A DNA stretch of 64,000 bases from an uncultured Chloroflexia bacterium (GTDB taxonomy: Bacteria; Chloroflexota; Anaerolineae; Anaerolineales; UBA4823). The DNA is taken from positions 64,510 through 128,509 of the forward strand of contig CAWBGK010000003.1 of the NCBI GenBank assembly GCA_963788305.1. The letters are read 5' to 3'. A program made the position numbers and the translations under genes. The notes below the pieces were generated by a model. That model saw only the letters and a program-made list of their open reading frames with translations. It was not told the origin of the DNA and ran no database searches. This document shows positions 42,590-64,000 of this stretch, in pieces (the stretch's first letter is position 1; every line of letters starts with the position of its first letter).

Positions 42590-42618
42590 TACCGGTGACT
42601 TTAGATTTATCGCGCCTG

Positions 42619-44275: not shown

Positions 44276-44316
44276 TGTTTCCTCCAATATTTAGTGAAGA
44301 ATCTGGTAATCAATGA

Positions 44317-45783: not shown

Positions 45784-45819
45784 CTCATGCCTTCCTTCAT
45801 AAAGAAAATAAAATCTGCC

Positions 45820-47222: not shown

Positions 47223-47316
47223 AGGTTGATCCCTTTCTTCAACGATCCAATCAAAAATCTATTCTTAAGAACAGAGAAGCGGTTTGTCGCTTCCTAACCA
47301 CATGAAAAGCTACAGC

Positions 47317-48945
47317 TTATCGGCTGGAAATCTCGCCGGGCAAATAATCCGGTAATCCACCAGCCGGGACAACCGCCAATAAAGCCACGAAAGCTAAAAT
47401 TATGAAGGACAGCTTAAGCGCCTGCAGCCGGCCTTCGATGTTTATGACCAGCTACCTGGGCTTCTTGCAGCGGGGTGAGATCAGATTCGTCCAGTATGTC
47501 ATCCAGATCATCGTTGCTGACAAAGTCGATATTATCCAGGTCGACCGTTTCTTGGATCACTTCTGTTGGAATGACCGGATTCTTAACCAGACTTGAAGCA
47601 ATGATCATATTTAATAAGGTCACAGAAAGGACGCTTGCAAATGCCGTCCCCAGCCCGGTAGCCAGGTTGTTGGTGGTGCCACGCAGGGCGCCAACATCAC
47701 CTGCCAGATGCTTGGGAGAGGCAGATACAAGCACATTGAACACCAGCGTTAATGACGATCCTTCCCCAAGTCCGATCACGATCAGGCTGAGTATCACGAA
47801 CCGGAGTGCCCCAGTCGTTGCGGATGGTATATGCAAGCATAACCAATCCAATCGCCACAATAATAAAACCATAGCGACCGATCTTGCGTGGTGGCAGCCG
47901 GTCAAAAAGCCGGACTACCATGGCTGTGCCAAAGAAGATGGCAAGCGAATAAGGGATGACAGCTACTGCTGTTTCAAGGCTGGTGTTTCCCTGGACGATC
48001 TGAATATAAAGAGGGATTAAGAAGTTTATCGCTGGGCCAAGGGCAGCGATGATAAACAGACAAAACGTCGCCGCCCGTTCTTGTGGCAAATCCGACAGCC
48101 TCTAAGGCGAGCAGAGGCGTTTTGTTGTTTGTCACACGCTTGTGGGACCAGGCAAAAAACCCCTGACCGAGCATCACCCCCGTTACGATCATAATCGGTG
48201 ATAAAGAAAGACCTAAAACGTTGTATGGAGCATCTGGATTAGCCACCAGCAGGCCCCAGGCTTTGATGTTGTTAAAACCCAAACTGATCAGAATGATAGC
48301 CAGGGCCGCCAGTCCGGCGCCAATCCAATCGATCTTGACCTTGGCTTCACGGCGGATGTTGTTTAATCGGAAGCTCAGCAGGAAAACTGCCGCGGCAATT
48401 AGAACGATCAAGCCAAATCCCCAACGCCAGCTCACCAGTGTGCCGACAACGCCAATGACAAGAAAAGCCAGTACGCCTGCAATTGCCTGGGAGGCGCCCA
48501 ACAAACCCAGGGATTGCGACTGCTGTGCTCCCTTATAATGATCAGCGATCATAACAACCAGCGTGGGCACCAGGATAGCCGCCGCTAAGCCGGCGATAGC
48601 TTGCATCTGGATCATCATCGTTGTGCTAGTGCTGAGAGCCATGCCGGCCATGGCCAGGGCGTGAAAGATGACCCCTACCTGAAACATATTTCGGGCACCG
48701 AACATCTTGCCAAGCTTTGATCCAAGCATAACAAAAGCGGCGACCGCCAGCGAGTAAACCACCAGTGCTGTGCTTACTATGGAAGGAGAGGAATTAAAAT
48801 CTTCGACGATTCCTCCAAGCGATACAGGCAATGCGCTGACGTTAAAGCCCATTTGTATCTGTGCCAGCGCTATAATGAGCATTGGCAGCCAGGACGCTTT
48901 CAATATCGTTTCAGTTCTAGGGGGAGAAATGGATTCCGTCGACAT
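47317..48945 (-). pseudogene. MFS transporter (14-TM DHA2/EmrB-like), at least 3 frame changes
   Basis: ORF 47974..48945 holds the N-terminal ~9 TM. ORFs 47697..48089 and 47414..47905 continue it. The C-terminus ..INIEGRLQALKLSFIILAFVALLAVVPAGGLPDYLPGEISSR-stop (47317) is in yet another frame. Confidence 0.65.
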
Positions 48946-49179: not shown

Positions 49180-50184
49180 TTAGAATGCTGGCCTTGAAGC
49201 AAAAAGGTTCAGCCCTAAGTTTTGACTGAGGAACTTCGTCGCCAGCTGTCCCCGAACGCTGTTGCCAGCTTCATCAAGCGGTGGAGCAAATGTGCCCAGA
49301 CCGCCCTTTCCTGGGGCGACTGTGATGATCCCCCCGCCGACTCCGCTTTTACCCGGCAAGCCGACATCGTACAGCCAATCTCCCGATGTTTCATACATCC
49401 CAGCCGTAGCCATCGTAGCCAGGACGCGCGGACAAACTGACGCACTGATAACATGTTCCTTTGTTATTGGATTTAATCCCCCGTCAGCCAGAGTGGCAGC
49501 CATAACAGCCAGTTCATAGGCAGTCACATCTAATGAGCACTGGCGAGTGTAAAGATCCACACTGTTGACCGGATCAAAATAGAGTCGCCCATAACTTCCC
49601 AGGAGACGGGCAATCGACTGGTTGCGCTGGTTCGATTTTGAAGCTGAGCGGTAGACTTCTTCATTAACTGTGAGCTCTCGTCCAGCGAAGCGAGACAATC
49701 CTTCATGAATAAATCGCCATTTGTCTTCGGCGGTTCTGCCAGGCGCCAGGCTTGTTGCGGCGATTGCTCCCGAATTTACGATCGGGTTTGTTCGGCGGTC
49801 TGAGCTCAGCTCAATGGCCAGGATTGAATTAAATGGAAAACCCGTTGCATTTACGCCAAGAAATTGGCGGACCTCTTCAGGACCAATCGCCTGGCAAAGC
49901 AAGCCGAACACGAACGGTTTGGATACGCTCATGATGGTAAACGGCACCAGCGTGTCGCCCGCAGAGTAGACTGCGCCATCCGATGTGACGATACACAGGC
50001 CGAAGAAGTCACTCGGCACTCTTGCCAGCGCAGGATAGTATTGGGCATTTTGTCCATCGTTGTTTAATTTATAACGCTCGTATGCGGCATCCACCTCGGC
50101 CTGGACCTGTTTTGCGGGCGGTAAATGACCGGTGGAGATTATTGGTAAATCCCCTTGATGATCAAGCCATAAATCTTTGTTCAA
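49180..50184 (-). CDS. glsA: glutaminase A
   Basis: ..FTIMSVSKPFVFGL.. (Ser-x-x-Lys), ..NPIVNSGAIA.., ..LPGKSGVGGGI... Start chosen at the TTG at 50184, preceded by GGAGG (ORF track 49180..50235). Confidence 0.8.
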   Translation of the reverse strand: MNKDLWLDHQGDLPIISTGHLPPAKQVQAEVDAAYERYKLNNDGQNAQYYPALARVPSDFFGLCIVTSDGAVYSAGDTLVPFTIMSVSKPFVFGLLCQAIGPEEVRQFLGVNATGFPFNSILAIELSSDRRTNPIVNSGAIAATSLAPGRTAEDKWRFIHEGLSRFAGRELTVNEEVYRSASKSNQRNQSIARLLGSYGRLYFDPVNSVDLYTRQCSLDVTAYELAVMAATLADGGLNPITKEHVISASVCPRVLATMATAGMYETSGDWLYDVGLPGKSGVGGGIITVAPGKGGLGTFAPPLDEAGNSVRGQLATKFLSQNLGLNLFASRPAF

Positions 50185-50249
50185 TATACCTCCGACAAAT
50201 ACATAAATGCACACACAATTAGACTGAGGCAGCAATAAGCGGCATCACA

Positions 50250-50688
50250 ACGAATAACTTCTGAGGGTAAGCTAGGCGCACCTGGTAATTATGGGATTAT
50301 ATCAGTCAAAATAATTCAATATGTCCGTCTTCCACAATGCGACCTATTTAATCACTACCCAATCACAAATCAACTGCTGTTATCCCGGGTGTCTGTCGCG
50401 CAACAAAAATGACGAGAAGCGTCAACCTCCATATAAATTGCGAGTTTATTAATCTAGGCAAATGACGATCACAGCCGGAGGATAACTCAAAATGCTGGAT
50501 GACAACGCTCTTAAGGTCTTAATCATCCTCGATTTACAGATAGTTGTATATGTCCAAATTTGTCTGTTACCTGCATTCGCTGCATCTGAAGCGGCTCGAA
50601 CGATCATTTCCAACTTTTCCTCAGGAACGGGATCCGTTTTCAAAGCTCGAACACTGCGGCGACTCATGATTGCAGCTAATGTCTCCAT
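50250..50688 (-). pseudogene. nitroreductase family remnant
   Basis: METLAAIMSRRSVRALKTDPVPEEKLEMIVRAASDAANAGNRQIWTYTTI.. stops after ~80 aa. Downstream frames hold only short recognisable bits (..ATDTGITAVDL.., ..LGS..) between stops. Confidence 0.45.
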
Positions 50689-51186
50689 AAATTCTAGAAT
50701 TTCCTCCAAATTATAACAATGGGACCAAATTCCATGGGTTAGTTGAGTATTCACCACTCATCCATATAAGAAGCAGGAGGTAATCACTTCCATACTTCCA
50801 GACTGCCCAACCTGGGATAGTTTCTTCGGCATAATTCTCCTCCACTGCCTCCCGACCTTCCAATCGCCGCTGATTGCAGGTAGATAAGGATCAAGCTGTG
50901 ACTTCGGGTAGGATCGGAGGTAGGAAAATTTCGCATCAGATTTTTGGGTTACAGTGCTGCTCCCGGAGCATTAGCTTTCATAACCAGTCCGCTTCATCAC
51001 AAAGATAAATCCATTTTCATACGTACTCCTGAAAGAAGTGTCAGCGACACCTGCGATCAATTCTCTTCCTGGTTCACCGTAATGCCGTTCATCAAAGGCT
51101 TAACTCGCCTTGGATACCCGCATATCTTTTCCGCTTGATCAGTTTGAATGGATTATTGGCTTCTAAAACCCTGCTTATGCGGTGAG

Positions 51187-52570
51187 CTATTCGAACGGAA
51201 TTTGACCAAGATCCTCGATAGATAATGGAAACACAGGCGGTCGCAGGTGATAACCATTGCTTTCATTTACTGGCTGGCTGTTCATCTTCTCTAATAGGAA
51301 AAGCACTCCTTGTTCGCACATTCGGCCTTGACATTCTCCCATTCCACAGCGAGTATACGATTTTAGTTCAAGGATTGATTTGGCTCCGTATGCTATCGCT
51401 TGTGCCAGTTCCTTTTTCATGACTCCTTCACAGCGGCAAATGGCAGTATCATCTTTGGCGAGCTCATAAGCGCCAGGACCTGGTGTAAATAGATCAACCA
51501 AGAGAGATTGAAAGGCCAGCTCATGACGCTGGAAGATACGGGTATGTTGTAAGGCACCCGATGGAGGAGTATGTCCGAGACTGATCGCTGCTGAGAATCC
51601 AGCGATTTGCCCCTCAATCAAGGACATGCGTGCTCCTCCAATTCCAGCGCCGTCTCCAGCTCTGCGAAGACACCGGGAAGACTGGTTTGCAAGTTGGTAT
51701 CTCTTTCAGGTAAAATCCGCCCAATTCATTTCGCCAAACATGTCGAGCACCCATTTGGCGGGAGAGTGAATTGAAAGGGATAAATCCATATCCTGTACAA
51801 ATTGTATCGCAGTCGATTATTTGCTGGCTACCTTCAACTGGTCTCCAATTGCGATCCAAGCGAGAGATCTTTGCGCCTTCAACCTGGTTGGATCCAAATG
51901 CTTCAATTACCCCCCAACCTATACGGTATGGTGCTCTATGGCGGAGCATTTTCAAGTAGCTTGTGAACCCTTCCTCGAGACGCTCCCACTGACCCCATAA
52001 TGCTAACAGATGCCTCAAAGCACGACGGATAATAGGATTGCCTTCCAGAACACCTACGACTTCAGCGCCGTTGTCCAAAAGTTTTTTAGCGACAACTAAC
52101 TGCAAGGGTCCAGTACCGACAAGCAAGACGCGCCGACCGGGGAGCACATGCTGATATAAAAGCGTTTGTGCGCCACCAGTCATTATTACACCAGGTAAAG
52201 TCCAACCCGGGAAAGCAATAGCACGCTCATACGATCCGGTTGCAAGGATCAATGCCTCTGCTTTTGCCCGGTACTCGCCCTCTGAGGTGTGGTAAATGAT
52301 GCGCTTTTCAGCATCAGCATACCACACCAATGCTCCACTGATGATATTTACACCGGCTTGTTGTACTTGTTGCCACAGTTCGCGACCACGACGTTGACGC
52401 CGCGTTATACTTGACATAGAAAATGGAGGAGGTTGACGGTAATACTGACCGCCAGGCGTTGGATATGCATCGATCAGGGAAACCTGGGCTCCAGATTTTG
52501 CAGCCGCCAGAGCTGCGCTCAGCCCGGCCGGTCCACTGCCAATCACTATGATTTCTCTTTCTAGAGCCAT
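51187..52570 (-). CDS. FAD/NAD(P)-binding oxidoreductase with C-terminal BFD-like [2Fe-2S] domain (HcnB/opine-oxidase alpha-type subunit; candidate D-hydroxyproline dehydrogenase alpha), two frame changes at ~51655-51700
   Basis: EIIVIGSGPAGLSAALAAAKSG dinucleotide fold. ..QTSLPGVFA / AGDGAGIGGAR / MSLIEGQIAG.. span three frames. C-terminal CRCEGV..TRCGMGECQGRMC. Confidence 0.65.
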
Positions 52571-52576
52571 TGAACT

Positions 52577-52855
52577 TTAACCTTTCAAATTGGTCGTAAC
52601 CACCATTCCTGGAGTCACATATACCTGGCAGGAGCGTTGATCAGGTTTACCATCAACATCGACCAGGCAGCCAAAACAAACGCCAATACCACACAACATA
52701 CCTCGCTCATCTCCCTGACGTGAGCGCCACCAGGCGCGTATTCCTGAGGCATGTAGTGCGCTGGCAATCGTATCGCCCGGCAAAGCGAATAGGCTTTGAT
52801 TATTAAAAGTAAAGGAAATTGACTCGATGTCCTCCTGGATATCAAATCTCATCAT
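52577..52855 (-). CDS. small (2Fe-2S)-binding subunit (HcnA/SoxA-N-like; candidate D-hydroxyproline dehydrogenase gamma)
   Basis: 92-aa intact ORF with ..GDTIASALHASGIR..GMLCGIGVCFGCLVDVDGKPDQRSCQ... Confidence 0.65.
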   Translation of the reverse strand: MMRFDIQEDIESISFTFNNQSLFALPGDTIASALHASGIRAWWRSRQGDERGMLCGIGVCFGCLVDVDGKPDQRSCQVYVTPGMVVTTNLKG

Positions 52856-54740
52856 CGTTATTTTCCCCTGTCAGGCCAAGCTCTTTTTGTTTCTCCAACG
52901 TGGGCGCTCCTGTTAGCGGATCCCAACCCCGGGCTTCATAGTATTCAGTAAGTAACGAGTTCGAGGTCGTGGATAACGCAGTCCGGTTCTTCCTGGTACT
53001 TACCAAAGGCTGGCACATTACGCACCCGCGCAGGCAGTTGATCATCCTTGGGGGTAATCCCTTCGCGCACATTGAACATCCGCTGAAGGTTGATGCAGCG
53101 CTCACTGATCATAAGCAGCTCTGCTCCATCGATCTCCCATCCTGTCAGGTCTGAGATCATATCAGCCCAATGATCGACTGTGACACCTCCGTACATATAA
53201 AACTTGCACGTTCCAATGATATCTGGAAGAGCCAGGCCGTTCTGCAAGGTCGGCACCACATACCCTTTTCCTTTCTCATCCCAACGTTCCACCATATTTG
53301 GATCAGGCACACCATAGCGCATTAGCCCCCAGTCAAGTTTTCCTCGATCCCAGGCCATTCCCTCCAAAGGATGAATATGACACATGCCCCGGTTTCCGGT
53401 AGCATAGGTGATTCCCAATGCCTTTCCCGATCGTGGATCATGCGCAGGACCTTCCAATCCTTTAACATGAATTGCCAGCTCCTCAGCGCCTTTACCGATC
53501 TTTTTCGCGGCATTTCGAACTCCTTCAGCAAGCAAATCGCCCAAACCTTCGCTCAGCGATTTTCCGAACCAGCAATGGTAGCACTTTGGCATTACCCCAG
53601 CTTAAGTCAAGACCATCCACTTCTTCCTTAGAAAGTAAACCTTGCTCGTAACAGTCCATCGCAAAAGCGATCATTGCGCCTGTCGATATAGTATCCAGGC
53701 CTAGCTCATTGCACAACCAGGTAGAATGGATGGCAGCATCCATGTTATTGTTAAGGACATAGGCAGTAAAGCTGGATATCGACTTATATTCTGCGCCACC
53801 ATGTTCAGGCGTCTTCCACTGGTCATCTTTCACGTGCACCTTGCGAGCGCAGGCCATCGTACAGCCCTTATAGCAGCCAAATCCCTTGATGAAGTTGTTA
53901 TTCAAATAGTGATCAAAAACTTCAGGACCTGCGCCCCAGGAGTTGGACTGCCAGTTCTTAGAAGGCCAATCACCTCCGTCGTCATTGGAAGGGATATCAC
54001 CGATAGTTCCGTAGCTTTTCATTCCGATAAACATCGGATTTTCGGAAATCTCATCGAAGGTCGCTTTTAGATATTGTTTTGATCTTTCTGATGGACCGGC
54101 GTTTACCTTGGATTTTCCTGAAACCACGATAGCCAGAAAGATTTTTAGAACCCCACACTGCCCCACCGCCGCAACGACCTGCTGCGCGATCATCACACAT
54201 CACTGCGGCAATCTTTACCAGGTTTTCCCCAGCGGGCCCAATACACATGACACTGGCTCTCTTATCGTCAACCTCGGTCCGAAGCAAGGCGGACTTTTCA
54301 GATACAACTTTTCCCAACAAATGCGTGGCATCATGAAATTCGACCTGTCCCTCACGGATCAGAATATAAACTGGAGCAGGTGATTTCCCTTTGATTATGA
54401 GTTGATCGAATCCCGCCTTTTTTAGATCGGGCCCGAAATCAGAACCAACCCGAGACTCGCCCCAGATTTGCGTGAGCGGAGATTTGAAGCACAGCATTAC
54501 GGAGCCGCCACCCGGGATTCGCGCCAGGCTGAGCGGACCGGTGGCCACTACCATGATATTCTCAGGGCTCAGAGGGTCTGTTCCAGGCATCAATTCATCA
54601 TATAAAACGCGAGCGCCGATGCCTGCGCCACCCAGATATTGCCGCATGACCCTGATTGGCAAATCCTCGGGTTTTGCCTCCCAGTGATTGAGGTCAACCC
54701 GCAGCAGTTTTCCCGCGTAACCTTTGATTTGATTGGTCAT
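52842..54740 (-). CDS. aor: tungsten-type aldehyde:ferredoxin oxidoreductase (AOR family), three frame changes (~54140, ~53555, ~52955)
   Basis: MTNQIKGYAGKLLRVDLNHWEAKPEDLP..YLGGAGIGARVLYDE.., ..CIGPAGENLVKIAAVMCDDRAAGRCGGGAVWGSKNL.., ..GCYKGCTMACARK.., ..GLDTISTGAMIAFAMDCYEQG.., ..ATGNRGMCHIH.., ..EYYEARGWDPLTGAPT... All four ORF pieces are collinear. Confidence 0.8.
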
Positions 54741-54801
54741 TGTTCATACCCTTCCATTTTTGCTAATGGACAATTCTAACGAAAATGGTTCTTCCTTACA
54801 A

Positions 54802-55080
54802 TCAGCCGCCTGCAAGGGCTTTCATCGCGGTCACTTCCTGGCCTTCTTTCAGTCGAAATGAAAAATCCTGGACGACTTTCTTATCTACTAGCAGAACGAT
54901 CGGACCCCGGAAGCAGACTTCCACGCTGTTCCACATGTACTCAGGCAGCACGGCCCCCCAGCGAGCAGAGATTACATCAAGCACAGTTTTCAGCGTCGCC
55001 TCATCAGGCAGCTCCATCTCGACCGGATCACGCCCAAAATATTCACGCAAGTCCGCAACACTTCTGAACTTGATTTTCAT
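54802..55080 (-). CDS. MoaD/ThiS-family ubiquitin-like small protein (C-terminal Gly-Gly)
   Basis: 92-aa intact ORF ending ..TAMKALAGG-stop. Its ATG overlaps the upstream DHDPS-family stop (ATGA at 55077-55080). Confidence 0.55.
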   Translation of the reverse strand: MKIKFRSVADLREYFGRDPVEMELPDEATLKTVLDVISARWGAVLPEYMWNSVEVCFRGPIVLLVDKKVVQDFSFRLKEGQEVTAMKALAGG

Positions 55081-55967
55081 TCTGCCAGGTCATCAAGCAT
55101 ATTCTTCAATTGGCTTACCAGCTCTGGCTCAGGCGGCAGCAAGGGTTTGCGTGGCTCTCCGATACTGCGCCCCATCAGCTGTAATCCGGCTTTGGCTAGC
55201 TGAACATACTTCCCTGTTCCTTCGAACAAATCCATTACTGGAAGGATCTTAAAATATAGTTCTCTTGCCCTCGCAAAGTCTTTCTGTACGACAGCCAACT
55301 CATAAAGTCTCACACACTGCTTTGCGAGGATGTTAGCTGGTGCAGCTATCCACCCTTCAACTCCCATGGCAAACATTTCTAAAACCAATGTGTCGCAGCC
55401 ACAAACGACCTCGATTTCATCACCGCAACGCCGCATAATATCACACACTCGCTGCATAATCCCTGAGCTTTCTTTTATGGCTTCGATGTTCTTGAATTTT
55501 GCAAGACGCTCGACTAAGGGAGGCAAAATATCAGAGCCTGAGGTGCCAGGATTGTTATAGACAATGATCGGGCAGTCGACATGTTGCGCCAGGGTAGAAA
55601 AGTGGTAGTACAACTCGTCCTGTGAGAGGTGACCATAATACGGCGGTACAACCATGACGCCATCTGCCCCTAAATCCTGTGCAGTTTGGGCATACTCGAT
55701 GGTCTCTGCTGTTGAACAAGCAGCTGCACCGACATAGACGGGCAAATCCTTCTTGACCTCATCTAAGGTGACAGCTACCACATGTTTGCGTTCTTCCTTC
55801 GTCAGCGAGGCAAACTCGCCTGTTGACCCTGCTGGAATGATGCTGTAGACTTTGCAGTCGTCTATTAAGAACCGTATGTGCCTTCTTAAAGCAGCCTCAT
55901 CGAACTCCCCAGTAGAGTCGAAAGGGGTGCAGACGACTGCATAAACACCATGATATTTCTTAGCCAT
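55077..55967 (-). CDS. DHDPS/NAL-family lyase (candidate delta1-pyrroline-4-hydroxy-2-carboxylate deaminase)
   Basis: ..GVYAVVCTPFDSTGEFDEAALRRHIRFLID..IIPAGSTGEFASLTKEERK.. is the typical DapA-family N-terminus. The functional call rests on operon context. Confidence 0.7.
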   Translation of the reverse strand: MAKKYHGVYAVVCTPFDSTGEFDEAALRRHIRFLIDDCKVYSIIPAGSTGEFASLTKEERKHVVAVTLDEVKKDLPVYVGAAACSTAETIEYAQTAQDLGADGVMVVPPYYGHLSQDELYYHFSTLAQHVDCPIIVYNNPGTSGSDILPPLVERLAKFKNIEAIKESSGIMQRVCDIMRRCGDEIEVVCGCDTLVLEMFAMGVEGWIAAPANILAKQCVRLYELAVVQKDFARARELYFKILPVMDLFEGTGKYVQLAKAGLQLMGRSIGEPRKPLLPPEPELVSQLKNMLDDLAE

Positions 55968-56000
55968 ATGATTATTCCTCGAATTCTATGATTCTGTGAA

Positions 56001-57155
56001 TTATTGAGCGAAGCGTGAAAAAGACAAGCGTTCGCAGCCGATAGATGGTTTTTGTCCAGTGATTAACTGGCTGATGATCAGACCGGTAATTGGTCCTTCG
56101 GTAATTCCAATACCTTCGTGCCCGCATGCCAGATACATGCCTTGCAAGTGCTCGACCGGTGAAATGATAGGGATTAAATCAGGAGTATATGGACGGAAGC
56201 CTGCCCAGGTTCGAATTGCAGAGATACCTGCCAGGAATGGAAAGAATCGCAGGTTGCGTTGCACAATCATGGCAACCACATCAGGGTCCGTCGCAGGATC
56301 AAAGCCAACAAATTGCCGACTACTTCCCAAGAGCAAATTTCCATTAGGCATTTGTTGGATATTGGCTGCTACGGCAATCCCAACGTCGGAATTGGATTGA
56401 ACCGCTTCCATATAGCCAGCAGCCAGCATTATTTTCGTTCGAATAATATTCTGGGATGCTGGGACGGTAACGATGAGCGTGCCTTTCCTGGGAGAGACAG
56501 GCACCGTCAGACCGGCGAGCTTGCCCAAAAAACCTGACCAGGCACCTGCCGCGATCACTACTGCACCAGTTGAAATTCGGCCTTTGTTTGTTACCACGGC
56601 AGTTACTGCTTGTTTAGATGGCGAGAGTTCAAAGTCAATTACTTCCGTGAAATTTTCAATCGCTGCGCCTCTCTGGCGGGCGGCATGTGCTAAAGCTTGA
56701 GTGGTGTATAGAGGGTTAACCTGTGAGTTTTCATGGAAGAATGCCCCACCTGCCACATTTGGGGAAATGTTCGGCTCCAACTCACGTAATTCTCTATCAG
56801 AAATCATCTGGCAAGTGAGTCCCCATGCTTGCAGGCGCTCAACCGTCTGCCGCATTCCTTCCATTTTCTCAGGCATCTCGACAAGTGCTATGCTGCCAGT
56901 TTGCCTGTATTCGATATCGATGGGAACGGTTTGGGCTAGCTCTTCATAAAGCCGGTTGCTGTAGCGGGCAAGCTCGAGGTGGATTTCAGGCTCTTCCCAG
57001 GTGACCACATGACTTATTCCACGCGTGATGCACCCGAGCCAATGGATTCTTTCTCGACCAGAACTGTTTTCAGGCCTGCTGTGGCAAGGTGATAGGCACA
57101 TGATGTGCCCACAATTCCTCCACCAATGACAACTACATCTGAATTTATGGCCAAT
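56001..57155 (-). CDS. FAD-dependent oxidoreductase, DAO family (candidate D-hydroxyproline dehydrogenase beta), frame change near 57015
   Basis: The TTG at ~57155 overlaps the AcnX small-subunit stop. (M)AINSDVVVIGGGIVGTSCAYHLATAGLKTVLVEKESIGSGAS then the frame of ORF 56001..57101 (..HVVTWEEPEIHLELARYSNRLYEEL...GHEGIGITEGPITG..). Confidence 0.7.
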   Translation of the reverse strand: MGHKFRCSCHWWRNCGHIMCLSPCHSRPENSSGRERIHWLGCITRGISHVVTWEEPEIHLELARYSNRLYEELAQTVPIDIEYRQTGSIALVEMPEKMEGMRQTVERLQAWGLTCQMISDRELRELEPNISPNVAGGAFFHENSQVNPLYTTQALAHAARQRGAAIENFTEVIDFELSPSKQAVTAVVTNKGRISTGAVVIAAGAWSGFLGKLAGLTVPVSPRKGTLIVTVPASQNIIRTKIMLAAGYMEAVQSNSDVGIAVAANIQQMPNGNLLLGSSRQFVGFDPATDPDVVAMIVQRNLRFFPFLAGISAIRTWAGFRPYTPDLIPIISPVEHLQGMYLACGHEGIGITEGPITGLIISQLITGQKPSIGCERLSFSRFAQ

Positions 57156-57585
57156 CTTCAGGAATATAAGGATTTATTGTTACCGTGCCATCACTCTCGA
57201 TCTTCAAGTGATCTCCGTCGTGGATGCATAAAAAATCTGTGTCATCTAGGACGATCACTGGTATGGTTTTGTTATACATCTCTTCAGCTACAATCGCTCC
57301 AAGAGACAAGATAGGATCTACTTTCTTGTTGATGATAGCCGCCGGTGCAGAGCCATTCCTTATGCCTTCAAGCAGAATGGCGCTGGCAGTGCTGGACCCT
57401 TTTCCGATTGGGAAAACGAATATTTTTCCTGTGATATTTCTTCCACAAAGTTCGTGCCGCCGATCAATAACATCCCCTGTTTTGGGGTTGATCCCTCCCC
57501 AAAAGCTGATAGGTTGTTGGGTCACCACTGCAGAGCCAGCAGCCTGACCGATAACCAGAGCACGGCCTTTCACAAACTTTTCCAT
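57145..57585 (-). CDS. aconitase X swivel-domain small subunit (DUF126/PF01989)
   Basis: MEKFVKGRALVIGQAAGSAVVTQQPISFWGGINPKTGDVIDRRHELCGRNITGKIFVFPIGKGSSTAS... GGAGGG RBS. Overlaps the end of the large-subunit gene. Confidence 0.7.
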   Translation of the reverse strand: MEKFVKGRALVIGQAAGSAVVTQQPISFWGGINPKTGDVIDRRHELCGRNITGKIFVFPIGKGSSTASAILLEGIRNGSAPAAIINKKVDPILSLGAIVAEEMYNKTIPVIVLDDTDFLCIHDGDHLKIESDGTVTINPYIPEDWP

Positions 57586-58851
57586 GCGCCCTCCAATCGG
57601 GTAACTTTGCCTCGCTTCGCAGAATGGATGCATTCTTCCAGGCTGCCAAACACAACTCTTGTATTAAGTTCTCCCGGGGCATAATAGGCGCACTTCCCTG
57701 AATTCGTCATGATCACCTCTGCGCCAGCAGACACGATGGGAGAGTGGAATACGCACGTGTCGAGAATTATCTCTGCGCCAAACTTCGTGATGAAGTCTTT
57801 CAGTCCACCCCGCTCCAATAATGCCATCGAAAGTTGATTGGTAAGGATGATCAAACGTACTCCGGCTGGCAGTGTTCCACCTGTTTTCTGAATTATTTCT
57901 GTCATTGCCTGGAATTCCGTATAAGAGAAATGCGGACATCCCAGCACGACGGCATCAAGTGCGTCGCCCTCACCAGCATCATGGGAGAGTTCATCCATGG
58001 CTTTCAAAAGATCATTCATTCCAAATTCAACGATCTCTTCCGGCTCTGATCCCTGAAAGGCATCTTCGAGGGTAGGTGCTTCAGGAGTTAGACCTATGAT
58101 GTGAAATAACCCAATACCGCCTGATGAAGCTGCAGCCGCACCCAAAGCTTTTAGTTGGTCGCTGTTTGCTGATGTATAGAAACCTTCAATTACAGGGATT
58201 CTGTCCTGGATCCGCTTTCCAATGAGATACCCTAACACGGGATAGAAAGTATCTTCCGCAAACAAACCTGGATCTATTCCCATCAGATGGATCAGCACCT
58301 GGCCTCTTCGATTCTCTTTTATGTGCAGGCCTTGTTTTGGTACCCGTCCGGTGATTGCTGCGCAAATATCCATAAAATCTGCATAACGATTAGTGCGCGC
58401 TCCAATAACCGAATTTGCATAGATAATCGCATTTGATTCTCCCCAGGCGATTTGCTGACCAAAGGAAGGGGTTAAGAAACCCTGGTATGGAGCGCATGTC
58501 CAGGTGGGAATGCAGTTCATCTTGATGTAGGCATCAGCAATCCGAGTAGCTTTGTGCCCGAATTCTGCTGGCACACCCTGTTTTTTCCAATTCTGGAGAT
58601 CGAGCGGAATCATATTGAAGTGTGGTGGGAACCGACACTCGCGCTCTTGATGACGCCAATTTTTCAGCAAACTCCAAACTCGAATTGCTCATCAAAGCGC
58701 ATCCATCGATATGAGCCTGGGTAATGGGTAATAATTCGTTCACTTCCAGAACTTCTGCCATGCGCACAATAATTCTCATGGCCATCTGAACACCCGGACC
58801 ATTCCTGCCGGAAAGCATCGTTTCTTCATGGCTCGTTAGACTTAGTGCCAT
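57570..58851 (-). CDS. aconitase X catalytic large subunit (DUF521/PF04412; cis-3-hydroxy-L-proline dehydratase type), frame change near 58625
   Basis: MALSLTSHEETMLSGRNGPGVQMAMRIIVRMAEVLEVNELLPITQAHIDGC..VSVPTTL then ORF 57570..58670 (..NMIPLDLQNWKKQGVPAEF..WTCAPYQ..IAWGESNAIIYANSVIGARTNRY..). Confidence 0.7.
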
Positions 58852-58979
58852 CAGCTATAGGTCTCCAAAATCATTTACAGTTGAGGTAAGCGGTATGAGA
58901 TCTTGCTCAGGCAATCCGGTTGACCTTATCTGGGTTTACGATCAGTCATCGCAAACTTCTTTACACATAAAAACCGAGT

Positions 58980-60017
58980 TTAGAACTCGGTACCCCACTG
59001 GTTATGCTCTCCTAAATGGAAACCTTTAGGCCATGGGTCGCGTGGATCAAGTACAAATTGTTGGATTCCAGTGATGAAAGCTCTACCACATATCATGGGA
59101 ATAACAGCGGTTATTGAACCAACTTTTGTTTCTTCAATAAGTTTGCCAGTAAACGTGCTGCCAATGATGCTCTCACAGACTATCTGCTCGTTGAGCGTTT
59201 GCATCCCTTTGGCATAGCGATAAGCCATTTCGGCAGATGTCCCGGTCCCACAAGGCGAGCGGTCGATCGCTTCAGAAGAATAGAGCACTGCATTCCGGGT
59301 CGTAACACCTGGTGTGGGCGATGGGGAAATAAATCGAACGTGTGTACAGCGGTTGATATCCGGGTTTTCTGGGTGAGCAACTTCAATACCCTGGTTGAAG
59401 ATGGCATCGCGAATCAGGCTTCCGATTCGGACAATGTCTTTTGACCTTTCTGGAACCAGTTCTAGCCCTACAGATTCGGCATTTACGATGGCATAAAAAT
59501 TTCCACCGTAAGCGAGGTCAAAGTTTACATCCCCAATTTCTGGTACGTTGATCGAAAGATCGGCTTTATACAGGAATGAAGGGATATTCTGTATGGTTAC
59601 AGCTTGAGCAATTCCATTTTGGACGCGAACGTGAGCCTTAACCAGGCCTGCTGGAGTGTCCAGCGTAAAGTCGGTGTATGGTTCTTTAGGTTCGATTATC
59701 CCTGTTTCGACCAGCACGGTACAGGTAGCGATAGTTCCATGTCCACACATTGGCAGGAAACCGCTTACCTCAATGTAAATCACGCCGATATCGGCTCCTG
59801 GCGTGCAAGGGGCAGTGATAATACTGCCTGACATGATATTGGAGCCACGTGGCTCAAACAGCAGCATGGTACGCAGCTCATCGAGGTTTTGCTTGGCCCA
59901 CAACCATTTCTGTTTAAATGTGTTGCCAGGTATTACAGGGACTCCTCCCACAACGATACGGGCGGGTTCACCTTCTGTGTGGGAGTCGATGGCAGAGATA
60001 ATCCGTTTAAATCTCAT
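58980..60017 (-). CDS. proline racemase family enzyme with Cys/Cys catalytic pair (4-hydroxyproline 2-epimerase or proline racemase)
   Basis: MRFKRIISAIDSHTEGEPARIVVGG.., first catalytic Cys in ..FLPMCGHGTIA.., second in ..AIDRSPCGTGTSA... Start chosen at the ATG at 60017 (ORF track extends to 60095). Confidence 0.8.
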   Translation of the reverse strand: MRFKRIISAIDSHTEGEPARIVVGGVPVIPGNTFKQKWLWAKQNLDELRTMLLFEPRGSNIMSGSIITAPCTPGADIGVIYIEVSGFLPMCGHGTIATCTVLVETGIIEPKEPYTDFTLDTPAGLVKAHVRVQNGIAQAVTIQNIPSFLYKADLSINVPEIGDVNFDLAYGGNFYAIVNAESVGLELVPERSKDIVRIGSLIRDAIFNQGIEVAHPENPDINRCTHVRFISPSPTPGVTTRNAVLYSSEAIDRSPCGTGTSAEMAYRYAKGMQTLNEQIVCESIIGSTFTGKLIEETKVGSITAVIPMICGRAFITGIQQFVLDPRDPWPKGFHLGEHNQWGTEF

Positions 60018-60104
60018 TTGATTGACCTTTATCGTCTGAGAAAAATGGTAGTTTTCTAAATGGCTTTTCCTTAGCGATTTTCTATTGGAAGCCATTCGTC
60101 AAAT

Positions 60105-60869
60105 TTATGAAGGGCTGCTTTCACCAAGAGTATCAAAACTAATATCTGTCTGGATCATGTTTCTTTCGACGCTGCGAAGGTGATCCATCGCTCGCTTCGC
60201 GGCCAGGTCTGGATCCCGATCGCGGATGGCCTCATAGATCTTCCGATGTTCCTCGAGTGCTTTCTGCCACCTGTTTGGCTGAGCAAATGAGGAATGACGC
60301 ATGAGGGTCAGCCACAATTTCTGGCCTGTGTAGGTGTAAATCATTTCCTGAACAGATATGATCACCGGATTTTCGGTGGAACAAGCAATCATATAATGGA
60401 ATTTTCGATCACCTTCCGAAAAGATATCGCCGATGACTTGATTCTGTGAGTGGTCCGATTCAACCCAATCTAATATCTCTTCTATTTTTTTTTGAGATTT
60501 ATCTGTGCTGACCATCGAGGCTAGTTGGGCGATAGCAGGTTCGATAGTTTTTCGAGCTTCTAGAATGACGAATGGCCTCTCGCCAAGCTGTGGAAGTGAT
60601 AATTTGAGTGGTTTTTCTTTTGGTTGAATTTCAATAAATGTCCCCTGGCTTGATCTCGTTTTTATCATACCGGACATTTGCAACACCGTAAGCGCCTCCC
60701 TCAAGGTGGCGCGACTGACACCCAGCAATCGCGCAAGTTCGCGCTCTGGCGGCATTCGATTACTTTCTGAATAATAACCACTTTCGATGAGGCCGATAAT
60801 TTGCTCGTAGACTTGGGTGCAGAGTTTATCTTGTTTTATCTGCCGAAACGTTTCTTTCTGGTTAATCAT
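60105..60869 (-). CDS. GntR family transcriptional regulator (FadR/FCD subfamily)
   Basis: ..PPERELARLLGVSRATLREALTVLQMSGMIKTRSSQGTFI.. wHTH plus a helical FCD-type C-domain. The ATG at 60869 is preceded by GGGAG (ORF track start 60881). Confidence 0.8.
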   Translation of the reverse strand: MINQKETFRQIKQDKLCTQVYEQIIGLIESGYYSESNRMPPERELARLLGVSRATLREALTVLQMSGMIKTRSSQGTFIEIQPKEKPLKLSLPQLGERPFVILEARKTIEPAIAQLASMVSTDKSQKKIEEILDWVESDHSQNQVIGDIFSEGDRKFHYMIACSTENPVIISVQEMIYTYTGQKLWLTLMRHSSFAQPNRWQKALEEHRKIYEAIRDRDPDLAAKRAMDHLRSVERNMIQTDISFDTLGESSPS

Positions 60870-60938
60870 TAGAGCTCCCATCCATACAATATACAGGTCG
60901 GGATCAAGAACTTTTCAAATGAGCGACAAACAATCTTG

Positions 60939-60949
60939 TGGTCAGACCA
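60939..60949. promoter_or_regulatory. candidate GntR/FadR-type operator TGGTCAGACCA
   Basis: Perfect 11-bp palindrome about 60-70 bp upstream of the GntR gene start, directly after a TTGCGA-17 nt-TATCTA promoter-like pair read on the minus strand. Confidence 0.5.
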
Positions 60950-61105
60950 TAGATATGATAACATTCAATTAATCGCAAATCAAGTGATAATTGTCATCTA
61001 AGACCCATTTTTACTCGTTCGAAAACGCATTTACTCGGTGTACTTTTGACCAAGATATGACAAATGTCACTTGATTCGTACATTCCATATTTGTTATTAT
61101 TTGCG

Positions 61106-61116
61106 TGGTCTGACCA
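61106..61116. promoter_or_regulatory. second candidate operator TGGTCTGACCA (mirror copy)
   Basis: Perfect palindrome at the outer end of the opposite arm of a ~65-bp imperfect inverted repeat (60937-61003 / 61052-61118). Confidence 0.45.
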
Positions 61117-61504
61117 TCGACCCGTTTACGACTCGGCAAATAATAAATACAGTTGAACAGTGACATAACATCCATAAATCGATGCTCTACCCAGGTCCAG
61201 TTGGTTAATTACACATGTCTTAAAGATGCTCCTCGATGTGCCAATAGGAGTCAATTTGTTCTGCGGCTGTAACAACCTGACCCATATGATTGTGTTAAAG
61301 ATGCAAGTGATTGGCTCAGCTTTTTAGTAAATGTTGTTCCCATGGATTGTCTAGACCTTTTTGAGGTTGTTTATAAGTAGTATGATATCAATACTTGTCA
61401 GACAATCTACAAGAAGAATAGTTTAGTCTTTACATAATTGAAACCATGTAAATGCATATGCAGATCTAGAAATACACAAAAAACCAAGAACCCTTGAATT
61501 TTAG

Positions 61505-62003
61505 ATTGTCGCGTTGCACCTTAACATAGTGTGGGTTTAGCCAACTTGCAGGCTTGGGAGTGAAATAGAATTCAAATCGTTCTGCCAGAGCCAGGGCTTC
61601 GTCTGCTGGAAGGTTTTTATAATGCACTGGTATCACATGGATTGAGATTGTCCTGTAGAAGCATGATTTTGATCGGGCGCGGAAACTCGACCGTCAAAGC
61701 CTGACAAAACAGAGTGTTTTCTTTCTTCGTACACCGCTGGTGCGCTTGCGCCAACCAAAATCCGATGCGGGCATGATCTTGCAGCACTTTCAGATCTTTA
61801 TCTGTTTACAGGGTTGACCATTTGGATTATTTTATGGTGGCGACATGCGGTGTCTGGGAGATTTCTGTGTGAGTTTTTTCTCGATCCAATTCCAATACAC
61901 TAAGCGTCCGGCGATTTTCCCTGGCTGCGAGATGACCTTTACTGATCAGTTTTTCAAGATACGTTCAATCTATTGGATTAAGTTGCACATGTTGTTTTTT
62001 CAT
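61505..62003 (-). mobile_element. IS630-family transposase remnant (internally deleted, multiple stops)
   Basis: Minus-strand reading: MKKQHVQLNPID-stop-TYLEKLISKGHLAARENRRTLSVLELDREKTHTEISQTPHVA.. (HTH part), then ..IMLLQDNLN..SAL.K.F.ADEALALAERFEFYFTPKPASWLNP.. (C-terminal DDE region). Only ~0.5 kb remains. Confidence 0.5.
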
Positions 62004-62132
62004 CCCGTCATTTCACCGATAGGACAGGATATGCCAAAACATACAAACGATTTTGTTTACGGAGTACTCAGTCAAAGCGATTCTAAGTAGTTACAAAAAG
62101 GCTTATTCAAGAGGCGTGAAGGATAAGAATAT

Positions 62133-63259
62133 ATGAGCGATGCAAATGTTGATTATTTAGCTCGACAAAATAGGGTAATGGGGATGTTAGACCAGGCAGG
62201 ATTGAAAGCTCTGGCGATCAATGCTGGTTTTAACTTGACATACATGACAGGCTTGACCTTCGATCGTATGGAACGTCCAACAATTGCATTGTTGGTACCG
62301 GGGTTGCCCGTGACCCTGGTGCTTCCAGGATTTGAAGTTGGCAAAACCCATGACCTGCCTTATCCAGTCCAGACTTTCTCTTACGAGGATAACCCATCGT
62401 CCTGGCCAGCAGCATTTATCAATGCCGCCACTGCTACAAAGCTGGTTGGCAGCAAGATAGGCGTGGAAAGCCGCGAGTTACGTGTCTTTGAGCTCCGCCT
62501 CTTAGAAATGGCTGCGCCAGGCGCAGTTTTTCTGCCCGCCGATAAAATATTAAATACTATGCGTCTATGTAAAGACAAAGACGAGATCGCTGCGATGCAG
62601 AAAGCAGTGGATATCGCTGAGCAAGCCTTTCTCGCCACAATTCCTCAGATTCGAATTGGCATGACCGAGCTAGAACTTGCTTCCAAACTGACTATGCAAC
62701 TCCTGCTTGCAGGTTCAGACTCTGATATTGCTTTCACACCGATCATTGCCAGTGGCCCAAATGGTGCAAACCCGCATGCTACTCCAAGCAGCCGCCATTT
62801 TGAGAGTGGAGATGTGGTTATTGTGGATTGGGGAGCTCGTCATAAAGGATACATTTCTGATCTATCCCGGACTGTTGTCTTAGGTCGCTGTGATCCCGAA
62901 ATGAATACGATCGCAAAGATTGTCTTAGATGCAACTGTCGCCGGTTGTCAGGTTATCCGCCCGGGAATTATGGCTGGAGAGGTGGACAGGGCGGCACGTG
63001 ATGTGATTAATCAAGCAGGATACGGTCTATTTTTCCGCAGTCGCACCGGTCATGGCATCGGTCTTGATGTGCATGAAGAACCCTACCTGTTTGGCGAGAA
63101 TACCCAGACTTTGCTCCCAGGAATGGCCTTCACTGTCGAACCCGGCATTTAACTGGATGGACGGGGGGAGTGCGGATTGAAGATAACGTAGTGGTAAGTG
63201 AGAGCGGCGTAAATATCCTCAGCAACCTCCCACGTATCCTTATCGAAGTTGGCGCTTGA
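62133..63259 (+). CDS. M24B Xaa-Pro dipeptidase/aminopeptidase (prolidase-like); in-frame TAA at 63150 and a G-run frame change at 63163-63168
   Basis: Creatinase-like N-domain, then ..GDVVIVDWGARHKGYISDLSRT.., ..RTGHGIGLDVHEEPY.., ..GMAFTVEPGI-TAA-LDGRG, then (with one extra G) GVRIEDNVVVSESGVNILSNLPRILIEVGA-stop. Confidence 0.75.
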
Positions 63260-63368: not shown

Positions 63369-64000
63369 ATGCAACGAAAGATATTCTAAATTTTAGGCGT
63401 GACCGTGCTATTACTCAGCATGGTTCTGGGCGCATGCGCACCGCAGGCAGCCCCAACAGAAGCTCCGGCCCCGGTAGCGACCGAAGCCCCTGCAGCACCT
63501 GAAGCTCCTGTAGCCACTGAAGCTCCAGTTGTAACAGAAGCGCCGGCAGCGACCGAAGCCCCGGTCGAAGTTCCGGCTGAGCCAGCCTGGGAAGCCAAGT
63601 ATAACCTGAGCGCTCCAGATTGCTCTTACGGCGGAGAGTTCAAGTCGATCGAGGCGGTGGATCAGTACACTATCAAGTTTACGCTGTGCAATCCCGATCC
63701 GGCTTTCCTGTCCAAGGTGGCTTTCCCGGCTTATGGCATCCAGAGTGCCGCCTATTTGGAAAAGACCGGCGGTGGTGGTGACCTGCTCAGCTCCCCGCTC
63801 GGATCCGGTCCCTACATGGTTAAGGAATGGATACGCGGCGATCACCTGAGCCTAGTGCCGAACCCGAACTTCCGGGGCGAGCAGCCCAAGAATAAGGAAT
63901 TCATCATGCGTTGGAACGCTGAAGCCGCCGCCCGCTTGCTCGAGCTGCAGGCCGGCACCGCGGATGCTATAGATAACCCCAGCCCGGATGACTTCGAGAA
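63369..64000 (+). CDS. ABC peptide/nickel-type substrate-binding lipoprotein (SBP family 5), 3' end beyond window; in-frame TAA at codon 7
   Basis: GGAGGAG RBS 7 nt before the ATG. MQRKIF-TAA-ILGVTVLLLSMVLGAC lipobox in the same frame, an Ala/Pro/Glu/Thr linker, then ..YTIKFTLCNPDPAFLSKVAFPAYGIQSAAYLEK..GSGPYMVKEWIRGDHLSLVPNPNFRG... Not in the ORF track because it has no stop inside the window. Confidence 0.7.

Follow-up and report, generated by a model that had tools for sequence, protein, structure and literature searches.

An aldehyde:ferredoxin oxidoreductase gene in the place of an aldehyde dehydrogenase gene in a candidate hydroxyproline catabolic cluster of Anaerolineae

Hydroxyproline from collagen and plant cell-wall proteins represents a large pool of carbon and nitrogen, and the known oxidative route for its degradation ends with an NAD(P)-dependent aldehyde dehydrogenase (ALDH). 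In contig CAWBGK010000003.1 of an uncultured Chloroflexia bacterium (assembly GCA_963788305.1), we examined a 64-kb stretch of DNA (referred to here as the window, to which all coordinates refer unless a relative is named) that carries a cluster of genes from the families of this route, together with a gene for a large subunit of the aldehyde:ferredoxin oxidoreductase (AOR) family and a gene for a small MoaD/ThiS-like protein. Which enzyme, then, would carry out the last step of the pathway in such a cluster? The answer we favour, and consider reasonably probable from sequence comparison, is that this is an Anaerolineae-type hydroxyproline cluster in which a Class I tungsten oxidoreductase (WOR) large subunit, WorL, together with its partner WorX, replaces the NAD(P)-dependent alpha-ketoglutarate-semialdehyde dehydrogenase.

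The cluster consists of ten tightly packed minus-strand genes at 51187-60881, whose families were confirmed using Pfam and NCBIfam. The nine families named in the initial annotation (a GntR regulator, a proline-racemase homologue, a two-subunit aconitase X (AcnX), a DAO-family flavoprotein, a DHDPS-family lyase, a MoaD/ThiS-like protein, an AOR, a small [2Fe-2S] protein of the Fer2_4 family and an HcnB-like FAD/NAD subunit) were all recovered by Pfam at the minus-strand places it had given them. The same annotation had remarked that no ALDH is present, and this holds for the window as a whole: a six-frame search for two PROSITE ALDH signatures identified none, and neither did tblastn with GabD of E. 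coli. We extended the comparison by scanning species-representative genomes with an alignment of the AOR clade, which yielded 80 loci and, with the addition of four metagenomic loci, a set of 84. In none of these 84 was an ALDH found within 10 kb of the AOR gene (PROSITE motifs, and tblastn with GabD, which returned noise only). The conventional version of the cluster is seen in an aerobic Rhizobium replicon, where genes for a DHDPS homologue (41% identical to that of the window), a Fer2_4 protein, an HcnB-like protein and a DAO-family protein are accompanied by an ALDH gene 6 kb away.

A comparison of gene neighbourhoods had been proposed as a check, and across the 84 loci examined the linkage of AOR, DHDPS-family and hydroxyproline genes recurs. 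A DHDPS-family gene lies on the same strand as the AOR gene in 38 of the 84 loci, in 30 of them no more than 500 nucleotides (nt) away, and 17 loci also have at least three of the racemase homologue, DAO, Fer2_4 and HcnB-like genes. These AOR-linked clusters come from at least eight phyla; their hosts include Anaerolineales and other Chloroflexota, Spirochaetota, Desulfobacterota, Halanaerobiales and other Bacillota, Bipolaricaulota, Thermotogae and Actinomycetota. The gene order in most of them is racemase homologue, Fer2_4, HcnB-like, DAO, DHDPS, AOR, which by homology would comprise the full four-step pathway with the AOR in last place. In a second survey, centred on the DHDPS-family gene, an AOR gene was adjacent in five of the seven contexts sampled. 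The AOR and MoaD-like genes are a conserved component of hydroxyproline-type clusters, placed where an enzyme oxidising an aldehyde would be required. A related MoaD-AOR-DHDPS module is also found in the cultured Desulforhopalus singaporensis DSM 12130 (L050). The nearest relatives of the window are found in metagenome-assembled genomes of Anaerolineales and Chloroflexota (the best AOR identity in species-representative genomes being 73%), and two of them are intact and share the window's gene order. The first, L001 (83.6% nucleotide identity to the window), encodes AcnX large, AcnX small, DAO, DHDPS, a 92-residue MoaD-like protein, a 625-residue AOR, Fer2_4 and HcnB-like proteins; the second, L088 (92.4% identity), encodes DAO, DHDPS, MoaD-like, a 632-residue AOR, Fer2_4 and a 460-residue HcnB-like protein. 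Gene families, gene order and the lack of an ALDH gene are direct observations, as is the AOR/DHDPS/hydroxyproline linkage, which was seen in many intact clusters.

In the pathway that we propose, peptides would be imported and cleaved by a neighbouring prolidase, and the racemase homologue, with its pair of cysteines, would convert trans-4-hydroxy-L-proline to cis-4-hydroxy-D-proline. The DAO-family (beta), [2Fe-2S] (gamma) and HcnB-like (alpha) proteins would together oxidise this product to delta1-pyrroline-4-hydroxy-2-carboxylate, which the DHDPS-family enzyme would deaminate and dehydrate to alpha-ketoglutarate semialdehyde, releasing ammonia and water. The AOR would then oxidise the semialdehyde to 2-oxoglutarate and pass two electrons to ferredoxin, while aconitase X would provide an additional entry for cis-3-hydroxyproline. 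A neighbourhood containing a racemase homologue, a D-amino acid oxidase (DAAO) family gene and a DHDPS-family gene is accepted as marking the 4-hydroxyproline epimerase pathway in genomes (PMC4113996). We infer every substrate, metal and electron acceptor in this scheme from homology and conserved gene order.

The proline-racemase-superfamily gene (58980-60095; Pfam Pro_racemase, 406 bits) is intact, with its true start probably at Met27 (~60017). Its translation retains both catalytic cysteines, in the motifs LPMCGHG and DRSPCGTG, making it a candidate 4-hydroxyproline 2-epimerase. The gene for the AcnX large subunit (57570-58851) is frameshifted, and the Pfam AcnX profile is matched over two frames, at positions 2-93 in one and 66-399 in the other; its orthologue in L001 is intact, has 426 residues and scores 435 bits with the NCBIfam C3LHyp dehydratase model. 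The small, or swivel, subunit (57145-57633; Pfam AcnX_swivel_put, 107 bits) is intact, with a likely start at 57585, and the 146-residue orthologue from L001 gives a single full-length tblastn match to it. Both L001 subunits match the C3LHyp dehydratase model, yet fall below its cut-off because the model was built for the fused type of the enzyme. Our literature search found no characterised example of a bacterial two-subunit aconitase X.

At the family level, the complete set of subunits for a D-hydroxyproline dehydrogenase is present, with the genes for the beta and alpha subunits frameshifted in the window. In the DAO gene (56001-57154; Pfam DAO), the candidate for the beta subunit of cis-4-hydroxy-D-proline dehydrogenase, the long open reading frame (ORF) covers Pfam DAO positions 54-353 and the GxGxxG-containing N-terminus lies in another frame, while the L001 orthologue is intact with 389 residues. 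The ATG start of its orthologues reads ATA in the window (57146-57148), so that a TTG at 57152-57154 is the only possible start. The Fer2_4 gene (52577-52855; Pfam Fer2_4, 87 bits) is intact and encodes a candidate gamma subunit. The HcnB-like gene (51187-52570), which encodes a candidate alpha subunit, has its Pyr_redox_2 domain in one ORF and its BFD-type [2Fe-2S] (Fer2_BFD) and sarcosine-oxidase A3 (SO_alpha_A3) domains in the next, with three frames needed to cover it; the L088 orthologue is intact and 460 residues long.

The position of these genes next to the AOR admits a second interpretation, in which the AOR and the adjacent Fer2_4 and HcnB-like proteins form a multi-subunit, NAD-linked aldehyde oxidoreductase similar to AorABC, as opposed to a free ferredoxin-linked enzyme. 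The window, L001, L088, L091 and L094 all share the order AOR, (ThiS or SDR), Fer2_4, HcnB-like; in L003 a second Fer2_4 and HcnB-like pair follows immediately after the AOR gene; and three-subunit AORs that reduce NAD are known (PMC6365974). We nevertheless regard such an assembly as highly improbable. In most other phyla the Fer2_4, HcnB-like and DAO genes are contiguous with one another and lie apart from the AOR gene. In Rhizobium, where they are likewise contiguous, and in locus L090 they occur without any AOR, matching the known alpha-beta-gamma D-hydroxyproline dehydrogenase (PMC5144071), and the partner subunits known for WORs are polyferredoxins, not Fer2_4 proteins (PMC13328260). In L003 (5379-8761; also in L004 and L011) we also noted, besides the pair behind the AOR, a second electron-transfer set ahead of the DAO gene. 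It is made up of a Fer2_4 protein, a 365-residue Pyr_redox_2 protein, a 4Fe-4S ferredoxin-like protein and a separate Fer2_BFD/SO_alpha_A3 protein, and resembles the four-subunit proline dehydrogenases of archaea.

The product of the DHDPS/NAL-family gene (55077-55967; Pfam DHDPS, 232 bits; intact) is the predicted source of the aldehyde. It keeps the Schiff-base Lys161, together with Tyr133 and Tyr107 (E. coli DapA numbering), while DapA Arg138 is replaced by Thr and Thr44 by Ser. Arg138 is missing from all 19 of the AOR- or hydroxyproline-linked DHDPS homologues that we aligned, and since this residue is specific to DapA, the protein is not the enzyme of lysine biosynthesis, nor a true DapA. 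It is 41% identical to the Rhizobium homologue, whose gene adjoins those for the gamma, alpha and beta subunits, and 32% identical to E. coli DapA, and we consider it a candidate delta1-pyrroline-4-hydroxy-2-carboxylate deaminase. DHDPS homologues from such clusters are routinely mislabelled as DapA in genome annotation.

The commonest chemistry in the DHDPS/NAL family is the aldol cleavage of 4-hydroxy-2-oxo acids, and this supports an alternative in which the homologue acts as a class I aldolase, cleaving the ring-opened 4-hydroxy-2-oxo acid to pyruvate and aminoacetaldehyde, so that the AOR would produce glycine, or would act on some other aldehyde. The wider distribution of the module can be read in the same way: a trio of MoaD-like, AOR and DHDPS genes occurs in a sugar-acid setting in L035 (6096-14148), where it is accompanied by genes for a ROK regulator, a Zn-dependent sugar dehydrogenase, an Fe-dependent alcohol dehydrogenase (Fe-ADH) and an enolase-superfamily dehydratase, and in L016 (5673-12802) and L093 (6762-12802) beside serine-dehydratase-like Fe-S enzymes. 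Against this, the window's lyase is 41% identical to a member of a canonical, aerobic-type DHDPS-gamma-alpha-beta cluster with an ALDH nearby, and the remaining gene set corresponds step by step to the known deaminase route, which leads us to consider an aldolase unlikely. Because the trio recurs outside hydroxyproline clusters, the statement that the AOR oxidises an aldehyde formed by the DHDPS-family lyase is the robust part of our proposal; the identity of that aldehyde within the hydroxyproline clusters is the weaker link.

What, then, can be said of the AOR itself? Its gene (52842-54740) is spread over four frame pieces, with Pfam AFOR_N and AFOR_C matched over four ORFs. Once stitched, the protein has 632 residues, aligns end to end with intact homologues of 620-632 residues and covers 99% of their length, as well as residues 3-601 of the Pyrococcus furiosus AOR (PfAOR; 1aor), the closest solved structure, which is matched over its full length. 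The [4Fe-4S] ligands C289, C293, C297 and C512 do not vary among 33 sequences and correspond in the alignment to C288, C291, C295 and C494 of PfAOR, with the first two cysteines spaced CxxxC across the clade versus CxxC in PfAOR. Around the tungstopterin, Thr243, Glu313, Tyr427 and His448 are nearly invariant in the aldehyde-oxidising members of the family (PMC13328260). This set is incomplete in the window AOR (PfAOR numbering): Thr243 and His448 are conserved; the Tyr427 position is His throughout the clade (GLEGPAHDPR; position 434 of the stitched protein); and the Glu313 position is Lys (AAG, 53783-53785) in the window, where each of the 32 aligned relatives, and L088 too, has Glu.

Directly upstream of the AOR gene lies the gene for the MoaD/ThiS-like protein (54802-55080), which is intact, encodes 92 residues and ends in KALAGG, with a C-terminal Gly-Gly. 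Its profile scores are weak (Pfam ThiS 22.9 bits with a cut-off of 22.5; NCBIfam moaD_arch 31 with a cut-off of 49.5), and a homologue was detected beside the AOR gene in 30 of the 84 loci. A protein of this kind, WorX, has been described for Class I enzymes (PMC13328260), and MoaD-like genes of AOR operons, such as aorD and aorE, are considered to act in the maturation of the cofactor (PMC6365974); we therefore designate the window protein a putative WorX, which would assist in the maturation of the pterin cofactor. A search of six frames across the window found no polyferredoxin motif (CxxCxxCxxxCP). Because the AOR has no polyferredoxin neighbour and is adjoined by a ThiS-like gene, the pair fits Class I WorL plus WorX, and the Class I members characterised so far all reduce ferredoxin (PMC13328260). 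We infer ferredoxin as acceptor, tungsten as metal and alpha-ketoglutarate semialdehyde as substrate from family membership. No genes for tungstate or molybdate transport, or for cofactor biosynthesis, were seen among the window ORFs scanned.

Several observations weigh against placing this AOR at the end of a hydroxyproline pathway. At the level of single proteins, the racemase homologue falls below the NCBIfam cut-offs for both proline racemase (401 bits, cut-off 556) and 4-hydroxyproline epimerase (349, cut-off 376), while the DHDPS homologue scores 218.9 bits with the NCBIfam dapA model and, with a cut-off of 206, would be called DapA. At the level of gene content, the related Anaerolineae-type cluster L090 (3191-10611) carries genes for a GntR regulator, the racemase homologue, AcnX large, AcnX small, DAO, DHDPS, Fer2_4 and HcnB-like proteins with a gap of only 33 nt between DHDPS and Fer2_4, and thus without a MoaD-like or AOR gene; no ALDH was found within 8 kb, and the aldehyde step can be encoded elsewhere or performed differently. 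The initial annotation had called the AOR a low-potential variant of the last step, which is plausible; however, in L089 (1-5374) a cluster of racemase homologue, DAO, DHDPS, AOR, ThiS-like and second racemase homologue genes directly adjoins genes for a Rieske protein, cytochrome b and cytochrome c and for succinate dehydrogenase. Since L090 lacks the MoaD-AOR module and L089 has it beside respiratory-chain genes, the module is one that is gained and lost, and it is not limited to obvious fermenters. Furthermore, because clade members occur in the HbpS-like and ThiS context of L002, L005 and L006, as well as in the contexts of L035, L016 and L093, the clade as a whole is not dedicated to hydroxyproline. 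Finally, the window's own AOR is broken and has lost Glu313; its assignment to the last step has strong support from the comparative genomics of this gene family and cluster type, but is not supported for this particular genome.

Some of these observations would equally suit a cluster that degrades proline or another imino acid, or an AOR that rides in the operon as a general aldehyde detoxifier: the racemase homologue scores slightly better with the proline racemase model than with the hydroxyproline epimerase models, though below all cut-offs; part of the AOR clade lies outside hydroxyproline clusters; and P. furiosus AOR is a broad-range detoxifier (PMC13328260). The aconitase X of the LhpI type and the DAAO/DHDPS neighbourhood, on the other hand, are specific markers of hydroxyproline clusters, the direct adjacency of AOR and DHDPS-family genes in 30 loci from many phyla is far above what hitch-hiking would be expected to give, and no alternative enzyme for the aldehyde step was found within the window. 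Taken together, we judge that there is little chance of either a different imino acid or a passenger AOR, and retain the reading of WorL and WorX as the replacement for the semialdehyde dehydrogenase.

How, then, should the broken genes of the window be understood? Indels were located using three-frame translations and DNA alignments to the intact relatives L001 and L088, and split neighbouring genes were profiled with Pfam on X-masked three-frame translations. The initial annotation had reported frame changes in the AOR gene; these are present, but the damage is not confined to it, as seven frameshifts are distributed over four cluster genes: three in AOR (~54139, +1; ~53552, -2; ~52966, +1), two in the HcnB-like gene (~51715, -1; ~51663, +2) and one each in AcnX large (~58619, +1) and DAO (~57017, -1). 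None of the relatives, L001 and L088 included, has an interrupted AOR reading frame. Given these seven frameshifts and the Glu313-to-Lys change in its AOR, the window sequence as it stands does not encode a functional pathway.

One explanation, to which we give an even chance, is that the lesions are assembly errors from an indel-prone consensus of the long-read type, and that the organism's operon is intact and working. All seven lesions are indels of 1-2 nt in short mono- or dinucleotide runs, as is evident wherever they can be compared with L088, and the stitched genes contain no in-frame stop. Four unrelated minus-strand neighbours at 42600-48900 (genes for an AbgT transporter, an M17 leucyl aminopeptidase, an M20 peptidase and an MFS transporter) are split worse still, with each occupying two or three reading frames: the M17 gene shows ~10 frame changes by manual reading (at least four pieces by Pfam), including a compensated pair inside the TFDxGG motif, and the AbgT, M20 and MFS genes show several each, with conserved motifs still readable across frames. 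Relatives' contigs with long-read-style names likewise carry split genes elsewhere (DAO and HcnB-like in L090, LeuRS in L088), and the HcnB-like gene, with its two frameshifts, shows no excess of amino-acid changes (3 versus 4).

Indel density is very uneven, however: the operon has ~0.7 per kb, the stretch at 42.6-48.9 kb has ~3 per kb, and the first 41 kb of the window, which include ~17 kb of intact long ORFs, have ~0.15-0.2 per kb. In addition, the AOR gene has accumulated substitutions. When lineage-specific changes were counted with L088 as sister and L001 as outgroup, those at codon positions 1+2 versus position 3 numbered 30 versus 29 in the window and 14 versus 48 in L088 (p=0.0014), and unique amino-acid changes numbered 22 in the window and 9 in L088 (p=0.03). 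Among these changes are Glu313 to Lys and Tyr41 to Ile, both in alignment columns that do not otherwise vary, and the DAO start codon is lost as well; substitutions are not accounted for by indel errors.

The alternative, which we rate a shade below even, is that the operon, or at least its AOR gene, is a genuine and recent pseudogene cluster within a wider decay of peptide and amino-acid catabolism across ~42-64 kb. In its favour are the signal of relaxed selection and the lost active-site residue in the AOR, the patchy concentration of lesions in peptidase, transporter and hydroxyproline genes, the loss of the DAO start, and the fragmentary state, both in the window and in L088, of the nitroreductase gene beside the cluster. 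Conversely, the spectrum of lesions is extremely skewed towards indels, with ~29 frameshifts counted in the window and not one clear nonsense codon; overall branch lengths are equal (143 substitutions in the window, 136 in L088); DHDPS, Fer2_4 and HcnB-like genes show no significant acceleration; and conserved motifs are still readable in the genes with the heaviest damage. A first relative-rate test, which used the more distant L001 as sister and had low power, found no significant difference (64 versus 53 changes, p=0.36). Error and decay are not separable here because unrelated neighbouring genes are frameshifted too, and for the indels overall we weight the two causes roughly evenly, while the substitutions suggest that the AOR leans towards a real relaxation of selection, and this copy of the gene may be dead. 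The initial annotation had held that real frame changes in the AOR would count against its proposal: the excess of replacement substitutions in this gene mildly favours their being real, and the HcnB-like gene shows no such excess. More generally, the window illustrates that an assembly full of frameshifts can conceal gene loss or give a false appearance of it.

Damage of this kind is not limited to the cluster and its immediate neighbours. The first 41,000 positions contain ~5-7 split genes, including those for a DUF2254 protein (~2290), a SulP/STAS protein (~16600), a 7TMR-DISM histidine kinase (~23600) and a META-domain protein (~38800), while the genes for a glutaminase (49180-50235) and an SfLAP protein (41560-42228) are intact. 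Positions 10000-14000 have a GC content of 60-65%, as opposed to 42-57% in the rest of the window, encode a 748-residue sulfatase and a 597-residue SH3/META-domain protein, and may represent foreign DNA.

The cluster's junctions are as compact as had been proposed, with some exceptions. The overlap of the DHDPS stop with the MoaD start is found as ATGA at 55077-55080, and the AOR gene runs 14 nt into the Fer2_4 ORF (start at 52855), ending with a stop at 52842-52844. The AcnX small/DAO junction is also present, but the intact ATGA seen in L001 is not, as the orthologous start is ATA. To describe the AOR and MoaD-like genes as physically locked into the operon was too strong, given that L090 has the same gene order except that DHDPS is followed by the 2Fe-2S gene with nothing between them. 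Scans for promoters and terminators over the cluster gave results at chance level, with a single hairpin of note: a terminator-like structure on the minus strand (58973-58991; 8-bp stem with a T-run) that overlaps the stop codon of the racemase homologue and sits in the cluster's only sizeable intergenic gap. DNA alignment shows that ~100 nt around it are missing from L001. This hairpin could separate a GntR-racemase unit from a second unit that runs from AcnX to HcnB.

The first gene of the cluster encodes a GntR-family regulator with an FCD domain (60105-60881; Pfam GntR 56 bits, FCD 79 bits), which is found at the equivalent position in L090 and beside the AOR gene in L016. It is separated from a divergent gene on the plus strand (62133-63259) by a spacer of 1.25 kb (60882-62132) that is AT-rich (~42% GC) and has no convincing ORF; a transposase remnant suspected at ~61486-61636, upstream of GntR, was dropped as it had no Pfam support. 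The divergent gene encodes a prolidase-like M24 Xaa-Pro dipeptidase (Pfam Creatinase_N and Peptidase_M24; PepQ-like by NCBIfam), the C-terminus of which continues in another frame after one frameshift at ~63150, and which is the probable supplier of free (hydroxy)proline. It is followed on the same strand by the start of a gene for a family-5 peptide-binding protein of an ABC transporter (63369-64000; Pfam SBP_bac_5, 84 bits), cut by the window edge. In this ORF, a stop codon follows MQRKIF (63369-63389) just ahead of a typical lipoprotein signal sequence, which makes it the only candidate nonsense lesion of the region, unless translation in fact begins at a GTG further downstream. On the other flank, just downstream of the cluster, the nitroreductase gene is present as short fragments in both genomes (50449-50757 in the window; 5450-6693 in L088), and it is at these fragments that the synteny between them stops.

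Is such a pathway new? The claim that it was previously undescribed is in keeping with our search of open-access PMC and bioRxiv, which found no publication on an AOR in hydroxyproline degradation, nor any in which hydroxyproline, pyrroline-4-hydroxy-2-carboxylate or alpha-ketoglutarate semialdehyde is connected with AOR, tungsten or ferredoxin enzymes; an account in a subscription journal may have escaped this search. The neighbourhood study of the proline racemase superfamily makes no mention of AOR, tungsten or ferredoxin oxidoreductases (PMC4113996), and the 2026 classification of tungsten oxidoreductases, in which only 5 of 92 clades have a defined role, makes no mention of proline or semialdehydes (PMC13328260). 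What would be new is the non-orthologous replacement of the last enzyme in an otherwise known hydroxyproline pathway. A broader proposal, to which we would give rather less than even weight, is that this AOR clade and DHDPS-family lyases form a fixed pair in many lineages, most of them anaerobic, with the AOR serving as a dedicated ferredoxin oxidoreductase for 2-oxoglutarate semialdehyde and related 2-oxo-acid aldehydes.

If true, the oxidation of hydroxyproline, and elsewhere of sugar acids, would become a ferredoxin-reducing pathway that possibly supports hydrogen production, with fermenters keeping the low-potential electrons of the aldehyde/acid couple for this purpose or for ion pumping. 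A tungsten-oxidoreductase clade so far without a function would gain a physiological role and a candidate natural substrate, and a second anaerobic route for hydroxyproline would stand besides the glycyl-radical dehydratase. The prediction is directly testable, since intact clusters are available in public assemblies (L088, L001, L091 and L094).

Among known systems, the sole anaerobic route for hydroxyproline found in our literature search is that of the glycyl-radical enzyme HypD (Levin et al. 2017, as cited in PMC9324843). Its chemistry differs entirely, consisting of a radical dehydration to pyrroline-5-carboxylate (P5C), and neither a glycyl-radical enzyme nor its activase is encoded in the window cluster. 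With P. furiosus AOR and the Class I WORs, the window protein shares a full-length AFOR_N plus AFOR_C architecture, the four [4Fe-4S] cysteines, Thr243 and His448, as well as a ThiS/MoaD-like gene alongside and no adjacent polyferredoxin subunit. Unlike the stand-alone "detoxifier" PfAOR, however, it is embedded in a defined catabolic operon, and its clade differs in having His for Tyr427 and the CxxxC spacing; Lys for Glu313 and the three frameshifts are peculiar to the window copy.

A similar exchange of an NAD(P) dehydrogenase for a ferredoxin-linked tungsten enzyme is known from GAPOR, which stands in for GAPDH in Pyrococcus glycolysis, and from GOR in Caldicellulosiruptor (PMC13328260). 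GAPOR belongs to another pathway and clade and acts on another substrate, and its role has been biochemically proven, whereas the role of the AOR here is read from gene context. AorABC(DE) of Aromatoleum aromaticum likewise has MoaD-like maturation genes in its AOR operon and serves in amino-acid catabolism in a role that an aldehyde dehydrogenase can also fill (PMC6365974), but AorABC, with its polyferredoxin and FAD subunits, is an NAD+-reducing enzyme, whereas the window cluster is without such WorS/WorN-type subunits.

The comparison with the Lhp/Hyp pathway (LhpA/B/E/F/C/G of Pseudomonas aeruginosa, the Hyp genes of Sinorhizobium and the aconitase X LhpI) covers the first three steps and their enzyme families: the Cys/Cys epimerase, the DAO-type dehydrogenase with [2Fe-2S] and HcnB-like subunits, and, as candidate deaminase, the DHDPS-family protein. 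An aconitase X gene, a transcriptional regulator and nearby peptide-uptake genes are shared as well. Unlike in the Lhp/Hyp systems, aconitase X is here split into two subunits, and the hosts of AOR-containing clusters are mostly uncultured lineages that are typically regarded as anaerobic. The principal difference lies at the final step, where the window cluster is without the ALDH-superfamily LhpG and has instead an AOR and a MoaD-like gene beside the gene for the candidate deaminase.

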